Source: a phage
Strand: one strand, 5' to 3'
DNA: 64,000 nucleotides
Sequence record: PZ179882.1
Shown: piece by piece, positions 31,092 to 40,111 of the stretch
Layout: each line of letters starts with the position of its first letter
How positions within the stretch are numbered: the stretch's first letter is position 1
The notes under the pieces: generated by a model
Database searches by the model: none
What the model was told of the DNA's origin: nothing
Seen by the model: the letters and a program-made list of their open reading frames with translations, nothing else
Position numbers and translations under genes: made by a program

Positions 31092-31373
31092 CTATTTTTC
31101 TGAAGCGCCTGAAATATATTTTTCAAGACGTTGTTTCATTAGCGAGCCGTTCTTAGCGATTTCTTCTGGTTTATCGCACATACGCAACAAGGCTTCAAGC
31201 TTAACGATATCGCTGGTACGTTCAAATTTGCGAGTATCTATCTTACTAGCAAGTTCAGAAATACGTGCTAATAGACTTTCAGCTTCAACCAAAGCTGCAC
31301 CTAGCTTAGTTGCAAATGTGTCAGTAGCTTCGTTAAGAATAGATTCTGATAAAAATTCACTATATGTTTTCAT
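31092..31373 (-). CDS. Internal (capsid-targeted) protein, IPII-like
   Basis: Starts [10 protein letters not shown], the T4 capsid-targeting sequence; 93 aa; between denV and e. Confidence 0.6.
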
Positions 31374-31858
31374 ATATACGCTTTCCAAGTTCCTGTTTTA
31401 AATGTTGAGATTACGCGTTTCGCGCGATTAGGTGTCTGACGATACCATTTAGATTGGGCTAGATTTACTGCTGCTTCATCCCAGCGTTTTTGTTGGAGCA
31501 TACGTAAAGAATTAGTAAATCCTGCCACGCCGGTTTCTCCCATTTGAAAAACCATATTAATCAATGCACAGCGGCGAACAGCATCAAGAGAATCATAAAC
31601 TGGTTTTAATTTAGCATTTCTCAGAATTCCGCGAACAGCAGCATCAACATCCTGATTAAAGAGTTTTTCAGCCTCATCTTTTGTAATTACACCATTGCAA
31701 TTACGCCCAATAGCTTTATCTAATTCAGATTTGGCAACACTAAGTGATGGACTTTTAGTAAGCAAATGACCAATGCCAATAGTGTAATAACCTTCTGTGT
31801 CTTTATAGATTTTAAGTCTAAGACCTTCATCTATACGTAACATTTCAAATATATTCAT
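31370..31858 (-). CDS. e: Endolysin (T4 lysozyme)
   Basis: 162 aa; [33 protein letters not shown] matches T4 lysozyme; two TATAAATA late promoters upstream. Confidence 0.93.
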
Positions 31859-31871
31859 AATACCTCCTAAG

Positions 31872-31892
31872 TATTTATAGAAGGTATTTATA
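31872..31892 (-). promoter_or_regulatory. Two tandem late promoters (TATAAATA) upstream of e
   Basis: Minus strand TATAAATA at 31879..31872 and 31892..31885, 14-27 nt upstream of the e start. Confidence 0.6.
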
Positions 31893-31894
31893 AA

Positions 31895-32350
31895 TTAAAA
31901 GAGGCTGTTCATTATTCGGTAAAGTGAAGGGCCCATCACATATTGCCACTGAGTACGAGGAATAAGGGCAAAAGCATCCATCTCTGGAATCATAACACCA
32001 TCTTTATTTTCAAAATAAGACTCGCAATGGCAATTTCTAAACATCTCATGCTCTACTGGAATCGTATAATAAAATAACTGTAAGTCTTTATTACTAGAAT
32101 ATTTAAATACACCTAGGTCTTCTAGAAGGTCTGGATTATAATTGCTAAAACCAGTCTCTTCTAAACATTCTCTTCGTGCTGCATCTAGTGCGTTTAAATC
32201 AGAATTTTCTACACGGCCTTTTGGAATATCCCAGCGATGTGCCATCATTCCAGGCTTACGAGAACCAGTAACCCGTCCCATGAATAAATCTTTATCTTCT
32301 GTCATAAAGATAATACCAGCTGATAATGTTTTCATTTTAATTTCCTGCAT
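31895..32350 (-). CDS. nudE: Nudix hydrolase
   Basis: 151 aa; Nudix box ...AARRECLEETGF; adjacent to e as T4 e.1. Confidence 0.75.
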   Translation of the reverse strand: MQEIKMKTLSAGIIFMTEDKDLFMGRVTGSRKPGMMAHRWDIPKGRVENSDLNALDAARRECLEETGFSNYNPDLLEDLGVFKYSSNKDLQLFYYTIPVEHEMFRNCHCESYFENKDGVMIPEMDAFALIPRTQWQYVMGPSLYRIMNSLF

Positions 32351-32820
32351 TCAATGATAAAGTTATTTAAATTTTGAGTATATTTCTTTTCATCAAAAAT
32401 CTTTTGTTGTCTGCGTAGCCGCCATGGCATTTCGATGAACACACACCATATTCCTGATAGTATTGCTGCTGTCAAAATATTAACAAGTATGATTAAAAGA
32501 ATCCAATCTCCCGTTCTGCCTACTGGACTTTCTCCAAAGAAGCAAAATACAAATGATGTCACAGGAAAACTAATAATGTACCACAGAATCATAATTTTAT
32601 CTGTGAACCAATCAGCGTTCGTTAATTTAGCGCGACCATTATGAATACATACGAATTTATCATCTGTTGCAGTAGATGGCTTAACTGGTTGATATCCCAT
32701 TCTAAACTCCCTAATCAGCAAATTTTTCATATCTTCGGAACAGCCATTCCAGTCAACTCTATCAACTGGAATGCCATCATCCCCATCATCTAAATCATAC
32801 CAGCGAGTTTTTAAAATCAT
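32332..32820 (-). CDS. Membrane protein with C-terminal ECRK motif
   Basis: 162 aa; TM segments; C-terminus NNFIIECRKLK. Confidence 0.5.
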   Translation of the reverse strand: MILKTRWYDLDDGDDGIPVDRVDWNGCSEDMKNLLIREFRMGYQPVKPSTATDDKFVCIHNGRAKLTNADWFTDKIMILWYIISFPVTSFVFCFFGESPVGRTGDWILLIILVNILTAAILSGIWCVFIEMPWRLRRQQKIFDEKKYTQNLNNFIIECRKLK

Positions 32821-33179
32821 CTGATTTTCCTACAATCACTCACAAACTCTTTCATTGATTCATTTTCAATATAAGACATGTAGTTATTATATTCTTTTAA
32901 TTGTATTTTGTAATCCTTTTTTCTTTGCCAATTTATTTTAAAATTATCATAATGAAAATATAGAATGATACAAAAGAATGAAAATAATGAAATAATTTTA
33001 GTATAGCGAAGTTCACTCCAAACTTCTATTATATTTACTGTGCCATCGATGTTTAAAATAAGACAGTCAATTAACAATCCAAAAAGACTACCCGCAAGAG
33101 CTGCAGCCAACGCCACAGCAAAAATTAAAAATGACTCAGGAAGCGAATATTTGACTTTATTTAGTTTTGGCTTTTGCAT
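32817..33179 (-). CDS. Membrane protein with C-terminal DCRK motif
   Basis: 120 aa; two TM segments; C-terminus MKEFVSDCRKIR. Confidence 0.5.
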   Translation of the reverse strand: MQKPKLNKVKYSLPESFLIFAVALAAALAGSLFGLLIDCLILNIDGTVNIIEVWSELRYTKIISLFSFFCIILYFHYDNFKINWQRKKDYKIQLKEYNNYMSYIENESMKEFVSDCRKIR

Positions 33180-33574
33180 CGTGATTCCTTAACAAATTTC
33201 ATAATTTCATCAAATTCATACGCAGCAAGTTTAAGCTGATATTCCTTTTTAATCTTTTTACACTGTGCTTTCCAATCACGTACGCGTTTACGATAATGCC
33301 TTCCTTGATACCAGTATCCTACCCAATTTACAGGTACTAATAAAAATGGAACTATTAATGGAAGAATTAGCATTAATACAAGTATTTCGCCAGAATCAAT
33401 ATCAGTCATAACATCTAAAACACCTCCAATAATCAATAGAATTACAAATGATATGAGTATAACAGGACCCATTAATACATCGGTAGAAATTATCTGGCGC
33501 TTTAGTTCATACTTCAAAGGTTTACTTGGAAGGTATAGTGATGGCTTTGACATATTCTCTGCATTCCTTAACAA
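33161..33574 (-). CDS. Membrane protein with C-terminal FVKESRCK motif
   Basis: 137 aa; two TM segments; start probably internal. Confidence 0.5.
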   Translation of the reverse strand: MLRNAENMSKPSLYLPSKPLKYELKRQIISTDVLMGPVILISFVILLIIGGVLDVMTDIDSGEILVLMLILPLIVPFLLVPVNWVGYWYQGRHYRKRVRDWKAQCKKIKKEYQLKLAAYEFDEIMKFVKESRCKSQN

Positions 33575-38859: not shown

Positions 38860-38945
38860 AGGCTCTCAAACAAGAACCCTTGATGATAGAGGGTATTAAT
38901 CAGTGCGATATGAGTTAATAATAACAAATAATTCTTAAAGCATAT

Positions 38946-39233
38946 TTACCATTTATAATAATACATATTTACGATGCATTCAAGACCCAAAGGATTCTTG
39001 AAAATATCATATTCAAGAGGACCTTTTTCTGTTTCAATAAAGAAATCAAAATTTACTGTATTAAATTTACGTTCTTCCTTCACTAATTTAACTTGAGAAG
39101 ATGAACGGTCAATGTAAACCTTTTCAACTTCAAAACATGTTAAAATGCCATAATCATCAATCAAAGCTTTAGCCGCGTCTTGATCATATTTATATCCATT
39201 TTCAATGGATGATACTTTTGCATAAAGAATCAT
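38946..39233 (-). CDS. Hypothetical protein
   Basis: ORF track 95 aa. Confidence 0.5.
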   Translation of the reverse strand: MILYAKVSSIENGYKYDQDAAKALIDDYGILTCFEVEKVYIDRSSSQVKLVKEERKFNTVNFDFFIETEKGPLEYDIFKNPLGLECIVNMYYYKW

Positions 39234-39235
39234 TA

Positions 39236-39634
39236 TCAGCCTTCATCAACAATAGTGTGAGTATTAGCATTTACGATTTGCCACCAATCAAAGCGATTAG
39301 AATCCATCGGTTTGTTTTCATTTTCTTTGATAATGTCACGGAGTTCATCTTCAGAGAATGCTTTAGCAATTAAATCGGTATACCCACCACGGGGATAATA
39401 ATTATCACCTGCAAACAAAAGGAAATTTACCTTCCCGGAAGCAACATATGCTTCCTTAGGATACTTGTTTCCTGCGTGGTCAACCACTTCAATATAACGG
39501 TAAGGAATATCGGTTCTTTCAACCCATTGCCATGCCGCCGCAGGGGAATCGAAAGCATCTACACCTAAACGATTATCTTCATCTTTAGACGGATTATTTT
39601 CGTAATCCGCATATACATAATATTCAACGTTCAT
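39236..39634 (-). CDS. Hypothetical protein
   Basis: ORF track 132 aa. Confidence 0.5.
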   Translation of the reverse strand: MNVEYYVYADYENNPSKDEDNRLGVDAFDSPAAAWQWVERTDIPYRYIEVVDHAGNKYPKEAYVASGKVNFLLFAGDNYYPRGGYTDLIAKAFSEDELRDIIKENENKPMDSNRFDWWQIVNANTHTIVDEG

Positions 39635-39819
39635 TATTCACCTTTAGAAATTTTATCCATAACAATAGCAATTAAACCAATTAAAAATGCTACTACAAGT
39701 GAAAAAACATTTTCTGCCGTAGTCAATAATCCGCATATAAATCCAACAATCATTGAAAAACTGAAAGCGGAAGCAGAAATTGCAATAGCAACATTTCGAA
39801 TTAATTCACAACGTTTCAT
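39634..39819 (-). CDS. Small membrane protein
   Basis: 61 aa; two hydrophobic segments; downstream of promoter 39848..39877. Confidence 0.45.
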   Translation of the reverse strand: MKRCELIRNVAIAISASAFSFSMIVGFICGLLTTAENVFSLVVAFLIGLIAIVMDKISKGE

Positions 39820-39847
39820 TTTATTCTCCTCAGTAGTAGATAGGGTA

Positions 39848-39877
39848 ATAGTATCACTACCCTATCTAAAAGTAAAC
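39848..39877 (-). promoter_or_regulatory. T4 early-type promoter
   Basis: GTTTAC 39877..39872, TACTAT 39853..39848. Confidence 0.55.
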
Positions 39878-40111
39878 TTATTTTTTACGAAAAATTGATT
39901 TATTTTCTGCTGCCCATTTTTCAATAACTGCAGCAGGACCAGTAACAACAATTTTATCACCGTAATCTTCTGCGGCGAGTTGACCGAAATTATCTAATGC
40001 ATCACGAAGAACTCCATGAGGCATTTCACCCATTTTATCTTTCTTGCCGGTGTAAATAAACTCAACTTTTACATCAGCAGTTTCAGCAATAAATTCTTGG
40101 TAAGTTTTCAT
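39878..40111 (-). CDS. Internal protein I-like (capsid-targeted)
   Basis: ORF track 39878..40123; MKTYQEFIAE capsid-targeting sequence starts at 40111; 77 aa; position upstream of 57B as T4 ipI. Confidence 0.6.
   Translation of the reverse strand: MKTYQEFIAETADVKVEFIYTGKKDKMGEMPHGVLRDALDNFGQLAAEDYGDKIVVTGPAAVIEKWAAENKSIFRKK

Follow-up and report, generated by a model that had tools for sequence, protein, structure and literature searches.

In phage P1, the Dar (defence against restriction) proteins are packaged into the head, injected into the host cell and protect the incoming DNA from restriction. The internal proteins (IPs) of T4-like phages are alike in being protective head proteins that enter together with the DNA, but they are unrelated to the Dar proteins and follow another packaging route. 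Four genes that may encode such internal proteins are described here, located between positions 31,092 and 40,111 of a 64,000-nucleotide stretch of phage DNA (record PZ179882.1), which is called the window in the following. The idea that diverse leader-bearing proteins from polymorphic loci of T-even phages serve as injected counter-defence has been published since 1994 and was functionally confirmed between 2007 and 2025, and ipIII is needed for infection of ECOR17. Amber-suppression analysis of the IPIII leader, reviewed together with other work by L. Black, assigned targeting mainly to residues 4 and 7 and processing to residues 8 and 10, and the ten-residue capsid-targeting sequence alone was reported to be enough for packaging foreign proteins (PMC9026906). 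Of the T4 proteins IPI, IPII and IPIII (Ip1, Ip2 and Ip3), each blocks its own GmrSD variant, without cross-protection (Silas et al. 2025, PMC12373910), and IPI* is an inhibitor of GmrSD. An initial annotation of the window had stated that the T4 internal proteins include an inhibitor of a host restriction system, which is out of date now that all three are reported to inhibit distinct GmrSD type IV enzymes.

Each of the four genes starts with a T4-type capsid-targeting leader, and together they probably encode T4-type internal proteins that are injected and most likely inhibit first-response nucleases, as judged from their sequences and by analogy with the T4 proteins. Two of them belong to known internal-protein families, and the other two occupy a third locus. 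The coordinates and starting peptides given in the initial annotation were confirmed for all four open reading frames (ORFs):

31092..31373, minus strand: Ip5-family internal protein gene, 93 aa, at the denV-e locus (the T4 ipII/ipIII site)
35360..35923, minus strand: unannotated leader-bearing gene, 187 aa, leader MKTYAEFLTE, third locus, phrog_2280
36049..36522, minus strand: unannotated leader-bearing gene, 157 aa, leader MKSYTQFLNE followed by AVLNE, third locus, phrog_2280
39878..40111, minus strand: Ip6 gene, 77 aa, leader MKTYQEFIAE, at the ipI locus between trna.4 and 57B

Capsid-targeting leaders of the four proteins

By sequence, the genome that carries the four genes is a Tequatrovirus, a T4-like coliphage. 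The region from 30.5 to 41.7 kb shares 97-98% identity with Escherichia phage DCP2 along its whole length and about 97% with phages L14, a51 and KarlGJung, and at least 1208 phage records match it, for the most part from Tequatrovirus. KarlGJung (Bas37) codes for identical copies of three of the four proteins, 31092-31373 being the exception. The gene order is T4-like, running through denV, e (lysozyme), nudE, e.2-e.8, rnaC/rnaD, the tRNA cluster, trna.2-4, 57B, 57A and gene 1. A six-frame scan of the window with the pattern MK[TS]Y..F[LIVM].E returned four matches, precisely the four ORFs, at a chance expectation of 0.0005 per window (calculated from six-frame amino-acid frequencies) and with no match in 200 shuffles. 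The four leader-bearing ORFs are real and far above chance. A looser scan of the window for further IPI-type leaders (MK[TS][FY].[EQ]F) found none. A GGA-type Shine-Dalgarno-like sequence lies a few bases 5' of each of the four ATGs, and the start codons that put the leader at the extreme N-terminus also fit the lengths annotated in relatives.

The targeting determinants Tyr4 and Phe7 are kept in all four proteins, as is a site for the gp21 prohead protease at residues 8-10 (LSE, LTE, LNE and IAE, in order of coordinates), with Leu or Ile at position 8 and Glu at position 10. A second LNE site, ending at residue 15, is found in 31092-31373 and 36049-36522, whose common N-terminus extends over 31 residues. 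The set resembles the T4 IPs in this N-terminal leader with its L/I-x-E gp21 site, in small size and in the use of two of its three loci; the leader of T4 IPII/IPIII, MKTYQEFIAE, is identical to that of 39878-40111. Beyond the leader, pairwise BLAST and hhalign comparisons detected no relation among the four proteins. Sequence comparison likewise revealed no homology to Ip1, Ip2 or Ip3 beyond the leader, and the PHROG families differ from those of T4 IPI, IPII and IPIII (phrog_4363, 7857 and 5341). Pfam, NCBIfam and PDB sequence searches with all four proteins gave nothing above threshold, and no relative was found among PDB sequences even with the solved IPI* entries included.

Purifying selection was detected on all four genes when the ratio of nonsynonymous to synonymous substitution rates (dN/dS) was computed for each gene against the most divergent homologue fetched. 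The values range from 0.05 to 0.32: 0.32 for 31092-31373 (against an Ip5-type paralogue), 0.05 for 35360-35923 (against CT01), 0.08 for 36049-36522 (against Mosigvirus mogra) and 0.15 for 39878-40111.

An Ip5-family protein and Ip6 at the recognised loci

The initial annotation had placed the four genes at three loci, and this holds: an IP gene between denV and e and another between trna.4 and 57B correspond to the T4 IP loci, and the third locus, between e.8 and rnaC, has no T4 counterpart. The genes 31092-31373 and 39878-40111 are therefore inside a recognised IP locus, and 35360-35923 and 36049-36522 are outside. Such placement is a positional habit of internal proteins and no functional requirement. 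Homologues of T4 IPI, IPII or IPIII were not found at these loci of this phage; by sequence, its internal-protein set is composed of an Ip5-family protein, Ip6 and two basic two-domain phrog_2280 proteins.

The product of 31092-31373 matches the profile of phrog_3499 ('internal head protein') with an E value of 1.2e-46 (residues 1-87 against profile positions 1-85 of 85), and IpV of phage PST matches this family too. Identity to the 'ipI' product of KarlGJung and OE5505, which is PST IpV / T2 ip5, amounts to 48% over 84 aa, and RefSeq names the gene 'internal head protein' in several phages. These matches make the protein a member of the Ip5 family (T2 ip5, PST IpV, KarlGJung 'ipI'), whose family profile it fits over the full length. 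Ip5 proper is encoded at the ipI locus and has an IPI-type leader of about 15 residues (MKTFKEF...ITE), whereas 31092-31373 is found at the denV-e locus and has an IPII/III-type leader, so that the same type of cargo is combined with a different leader at a different locus. The ATG of 31092-31373 overlaps the stop codon of the lysozyme gene e (ATGA, 31370-31376), and lysozyme ends in TWKAYI here as against TWDAYKNL in T4. This overlap looks like a recombination junction, and translational coupling between e and 31092-31373 is possible from the arrangement of the two reading frames.

The product of 39878-40111 matches phrog_8111 ('internal virion protein') over positions 1-77 of 77 with an E value of 1.2e-52. 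It is 100% identical to the products of many genes annotated as ip6 or internal (core) protein, 95% identical to PST ipVI and 78% identical to the VR7 protein 'Ip6, similar to bacteriophage T6 Ip6', and it is present in 246 records. On these matches 39878-40111 is Ip6, where the names Ip5 and Ip6 both rest on GenBank annotations. The position between trna.4 and 57B is also shared with the Ip6 family (T6 Ip6, PST IpVI, VR7 Ip6; phrog_8111), and no notable difference was seen. Ip6 stands alone at the ipI locus of this phage; in KarlGJung, OE5505 and PST it is adjoined by Ip5. Both 31092-31373 and Ip6 are near neutral in their mature form (pI of about 6.3 and 6.5, respectively).

A third locus between e.8 and rnaC

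Compared with T4, the genome contains a 1.2-kb insertion (35352-36565) between the e.8 terminator and rnaC, which holds 35360-35923 and 36049-36522. Both proteins match phrog_2280 ('unknown function') over the full length, with E values of 2e-53 and 2.3e-60, respectively; in contrast, there is a separate PHROG for each classical Ip from Ip1 to Ip6, with an annotation as internal virion or head protein. The 187-residue protein encoded by 35360-35923 is matched by 165 phage records, all at 85% identity or more, and 40 of the 40 listed rows are 'hypothetical protein' or unannotated. For the 157-residue protein encoded by 36049-36522, 512 phage records match and, among the matches listed, all are 'hypothetical protein', 'Phage protein' or unannotated (RB51 RB32ORF132c is one such match of unnamed function). 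Silas et al. (2025) speak of 'the two Ip loci' and of Ip1-10, with no mention of phrog_2280 genes (PMC12373910), and the e.8-rnaC insertion is neither of those two loci.

Protein searches covering 5.8 billion proteins yielded 11 relatives of 35360-35923 and 13 of 36049-36522, and a profile search of 1.84 billion proteins yielded 13 cluster representatives. Three weak distant matches were dropped as chimeric contigs or low-complexity sequence. Judged from these searches, the family is very small and confined to the Tevenvirinae lineage. In Mosigvirus mogra, a 36049-type gene is located at the equivalent site, after the tRNAs and an ORF of the type found at 36906-37256; in Klebsiella phage KP1 (Jiaodavirus) the 36049-type gene KP1_122 directly follows the tRNAs, and Yersinia phage fHe-Yen9-01 (Tegunavirus) carries a tandem pair, gp154 and gp153. 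The mogra relative, KP1_122, gp153 and gp154 all match phrog_2280. The N-terminal domain of 36049-36522 is conserved in these three genera and the leader is retained, in the forms MKSYAEFLTE, MKFKEFLAE, MLQYNEFLKE and MLEYSEFLKE, while distant metagenomic members of phrog_2280 start with MLKFNEFLAE, MINFSDFLNE or MKSFSSFLNE. As the leader is kept through deep divergence of the family, it appears to be under selection itself. In fHe-Yen9-01, the genes of the tandem pair (2422-2991 and 3001-3537; leaders MLQYNEFLKE and MLEYSEFLKE) are accompanied by a separate 52-aa ORF (1700-1858) that starts with MKTYIEFINE, and all three are annotated as hypothetical.

The four proteins had been described as otherwise unrelated apart from their leaders. 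This agrees with the pairwise BLAST and hhalign results, which align only the leader of 35360-35923 with that of 36049-36522, but the statement is too strong for this middle pair because of the shared full-length PHROG, the shared layout of the structure models and a set of bridging alignments. AlphaFold2 (AF2) models of both proteins (pLDDT 73 for 36049-36522 and 60 for 35360-35923) show a leader helix, a three-helix N-terminal domain, a disordered linker rich in Lys, Pro and Ala (residues 77-98 in 35360-35923) and a long antiparallel helical hairpin. Yersinia gp154, with its first 16 residues removed, aligns collinearly with both proteins, although weakly (23% over 172 aa, E 0.003, and 27% over 147 aa, E 0.03). 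The two proteins are probable distant tandem paralogues on the basis of sequence and models. In Shigella phage CT01 (1501-1989), the 35360-type protein lacks 25 residues through an in-frame deletion that coincides exactly with the predicted disordered linker.

The mature phrog_2280 proteins are basic (19.6 kDa and pI 9.5 for 35360-35923; 16 kDa and pI 9.5 for 36049-36522) and thereby similar in size and basicity to T4 IPIII and IPII (20.4 and 9.8 kDa, pI 9.6). This raises the alternative that the pair is mainly structural: packaged by means of the leader, the two proteins would neutralise the packed DNA, organise it or aid ejection, in place of the abundant basic IPII/IPIII and with no specific defence target. 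The lysine-, proline- and alanine-rich linker with a long helical hairpin in each protein would suit such a role, as would an N-terminal domain conserved over Tequatrovirus, Mosigvirus, Jiaodavirus and Tegunavirus at the low dN/dS given above. It would also fit that T4 and PST have IPII, IPIII or IpIV at denV-e and no third-locus genes, the reverse of KarlGJung, in which denV-e is empty and both third-locus genes are intact. This complementarity is anecdotal, as it comes from four genomes only (T4, PST, KarlGJung and OE5505); OE5505 has an Ip4-type gene at denV-e, and its third-locus genes look frameshifted. Against a mainly structural role, T4 Ip2 and Ip3 are basic and nevertheless specific GmrSD inhibitors (PMC12373910), so that basic charge leaves an inhibitor role possible. 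The distribution of the two genes is moreover patchy (165 and 512 of the at least 1208 related records) and apparent frameshifts occur in some, a pattern expected of dispensable accessory genes. A mainly structural function is regarded as unlikely.

Both third-locus genes are disrupted in OE5505 (approximately 5186-5748 and 5874-6308). The 36049-type gene is shifted out of frame by a single +1 T insertion and is otherwise 100% identical, and the 35360-type gene is broken up into two ORFs; tblastn matches to the third-locus genes in G28 and 235Ecol030PP likewise fall into two pieces. The OE5505 frameshifts were rejected as proof of dispensability, since a lone +1 T in a 100% identical gene could be a sequencing error. 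The disruptions could thus reflect either real decay or sequencing error.

The phrog_2280 layout of leader, conserved small helical N-terminal domain, basic disordered linker and variable helical hairpin also bears on a broader possibility. Given the conservation of the N-terminal domain across phages of Escherichia, Klebsiella and Yersinia, these proteins may have a conserved host component, or the DNA of the phage itself, as their site of action. It is conceivable, though speculative, that e.8-rnaC is a third, hitherto unrecognised internal-protein locus of the Tevenvirinae and that the often tandem phrog_2280 genes encode a functionally distinct injected class with such a site of action. 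If this were true, the phrog_2280 proteins would be distinct from the strain-specific restriction-enzyme inhibitors typified by Ip1-3.

Promoters, terminators and cassette structure

The following regulatory elements and repeats were located around the four genes:

36561..36568, minus strand: T4 late promoter TATAAATA, beginning 46 nt 5' of the ATG at 36522
35962..35969, minus strand: late-promoter-like box with one mismatch, AATAAATA, starting 46 nt upstream of the 35923 ATG, putative in function
31872..31892, minus strand: two TATAAATA late promoters (31892 and 31879) upstream of the lysozyme gene e
41229..41236, minus strand: TATAAATA within gene 1, at the T4 distance of 363 nt from the low-coordinate gene end
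40137..40175, minus strand: early-promoter/stem-loop element of the PeSL type, TTTACA-17-TACTAT with an upstream TG, before ip6
39839..39877, minus strand: second PeSL-type element, 77% identical to the first, directly 3' of ip6
36562..36601, minus strand: intrinsic terminator hairpin after rnaC, upstream copy of a 40-nt direct repeat
36005..36044, minus strand: second terminator copy, 93% identical, just downstream of 36049-36522
35333..35351, minus strand: different terminator hairpin downstream of 35360-35923, where the 1.2-kb insertion that T4 lacks ends

The TATAAATA pair upstream of e would also transcribe 31092-31373, and T4 has a late promoter pair at the equivalent position upstream of e/ipIII/ipII. 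The late promoter closest to ip6 is the copy inside gene 1, from which transcription would read through 57A and 57B. In T4 itself, an early promoter/stem-loop immediately precedes ipI, ipII and ipIII, none of which has a TATAAATA close by, so late transcripts of these genes must originate at the promoters of e and at the one inside gene 1. As far as sequence matches indicate, the promoter context of the ip genes in the window is the same as that of T4, with an early PeSL promoter plus an upstream late promoter, and 36049-36522 additionally has a TATAAATA of its own. Transcription of the four genes late in infection is predicted from promoter sequence matches only. PeSL-like elements were also observed 5' of T4 ipI, ipII and ipIII, and one lies 3' of 31092-31373, before denV.

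The 40-nt terminator hairpin consists of AGCCCCGACCGAAAGGTTGGGGCT and a T-run, and T4 has one copy of it, after rnaC. An intrinsic terminator closes each third-locus gene. With the rnaC terminator duplicated behind it, 36049-36522 becomes a repeat-flanked unit, and the duplication suggests that the cassette was gained or lost via recombination between the terminators. The PeSL-type elements on both sides similarly make ip6 a repeat-flanked cassette. A PeSL consensus for the PST/T4 pair is available, and PeSL-mediated shuffling has been proposed for the IP locus (PMC4122927). The two stem-loop elements that flank ip6 are like those of the PeSL shuffling cassettes of T4-like phages (Arbiol 2010; Comeau 2014), whereas the repeat at the third locus differs in that a terminator is followed by a late promoter in place of an early-promoter stem-loop. 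The two third-locus genes also share the DNA that codes for their leaders as a direct repeat (74% over 42 nt).

Such repeats would also be found if the leader DNA and the flanking promoter or terminator repeats formed a recombination or translation-initiation module, in which case at least the third-locus proteins would be cytoplasmic in the producing cell and would not be packaged. The repeated leader-coding DNA, the bracketing of the genes by terminators or PeSL elements and the shuffling proposed for the IP locus are all in keeping with this explanation. It is difficult to reconcile with conservation at the protein level exactly at positions 4, 7, 8 and 10, even in distant leaders that otherwise differ, and with the reported sufficiency of the ten-residue leader for packaging, and is considered very improbable.

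Probable packaging and possible targets of the internal proteins

The interpretation of the four genes as internal-protein genes, as proposed in the initial annotation, gains support from the leaders, the family assignments and the promoter context; its anti-defence part is an analogy. With leaders of this kind, the four proteins are probably packaged and processed. Late in infection, the leader would carry each protein into the prohead scaffolding core, and the gp21 prohead protease would cut after Glu10, possibly also after Glu15 in 31092-31373 and 36049-36522. The mature proteins would remain among the packaged DNA and be ejected with it into the next host cell, where, by analogy with Ip1-3, they would most likely serve as ready-made stoichiometric inhibitors of first-response host nucleases. 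The genes form small cassettes bounded by repeated promoters, terminators and leader-coding sequence, an arrangement by which they are plausibly swapped between related phages.

For an anti-defence role of the four proteins, which is argued by analogy, the case is evenly balanced. As all three T4 IPs inhibit GmrSD, enzymes of the GmrSD family are the leading candidate class of targets, in particular type IV restriction variants that attack glucosyl-hydroxymethylcytosine DNA; even so, GmrSD specifically is put forward here as a tentative target, with considerable doubt. The targets of Ip1-3 are three GmrSD variants. Every gene in 'the two Ip loci' was proposed to have a GmrSD variant as its target (PMC12373910). 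In the same study, ip4-10, which include Ip5 and Ip6, did not reproducibly inhibit the GmrSD systems with activity on T-even phages, five of them newly found and three known, and the authors counted many GmrSD clusters as untested (PMC12373910). The negative result with Ip4-10 is therefore far from exhaustive. It does agree with an alternative in which the proteins are injected anti-defence factors directed at other targets, such as other modification-dependent nucleases, BREX-associated or type I-III restriction, or abortive-infection sensors, and the lack of any sequence or fold relationship to Ip1-3 past the leader points the same way. As all three of the characterised IPs hit GmrSD-family enzymes and so many GmrSD clusters were counted as untested, targets outside this family are judged rather unlikely.

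Several observations weigh against the favoured interpretation that the four genes encode injected inhibitors of T4 type. Besides the outcome for ip4-10, these include the promoter of 35360-35923, whose sole late-promoter candidate is the box with one mismatch. Virion proteomics or injection data covering the four proteins were not found in the searchable literature, which was searched for the fPS-65/fPS-90 paper, fHe-Yen9-01, ZN18 and Tequatrovirus in general. Fold searches with the all-helical models retrieved only generic helical hairpins and gave no functional clue. Finally, the conservation of the 36049-36522 N-terminal domain in phage genera that differ in host (dN/dS 0.08) fits less well with a strain-specific restriction inhibitor of fast turnover and may indicate a structural or conserved-target role for proteins of the 36049 type.

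Neighbouring genes

The stretch 36566-36906 encodes homologues of rnaC and rnaD, two stable RNAs of T4, at 91% identity to T4; an Rfam search gave no family reaching the gathering score there. A mechanically called ORF (36049..36699) extends into this rnaC/rnaD region, and its upstream TTG start is therefore spurious. Between rnaD and tRNA-Arg lies a conserved ORF of 116 aa (36906-37256) that T4 lacks and that KarlGJung, OE5505 and Mosigvirus mogra (mogra_133) share. The genome has 10 tRNA genes, His, Asn, Tyr and Met among them, compared with 8 in T4. An ORF resembling HNH homing endonucleases (38227-38859, 210 aa) adjoins the tRNA cluster, where T4 has the GIY-YIG gene segB within the cluster instead.

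Implications for T4-like phages

The four genes add members to a known class and do not represent a new kind of system. Two of them, the Ip5-family gene and ip6, add nothing new. The modestly new point is the third locus outside the recognised IP loci together with phrog_2280; the rest is mostly ordinary. The third-locus pair adds to the catalogued leader-bearing proteins a family and a site that are unmarked as internal proteins in PHROGs and in GenBank/RefSeq, and it suggests as an annotation rule that the leader be looked for genome-wide, beyond the classical loci. As phrog_2280 genes are present in hundreds of sequenced phages, they offer cheap and well-defined candidates for anti-defence screens. 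Injected internal proteins are the first phage proteins that host immunity meets, and they help to set the host range of T4-like therapy phages.

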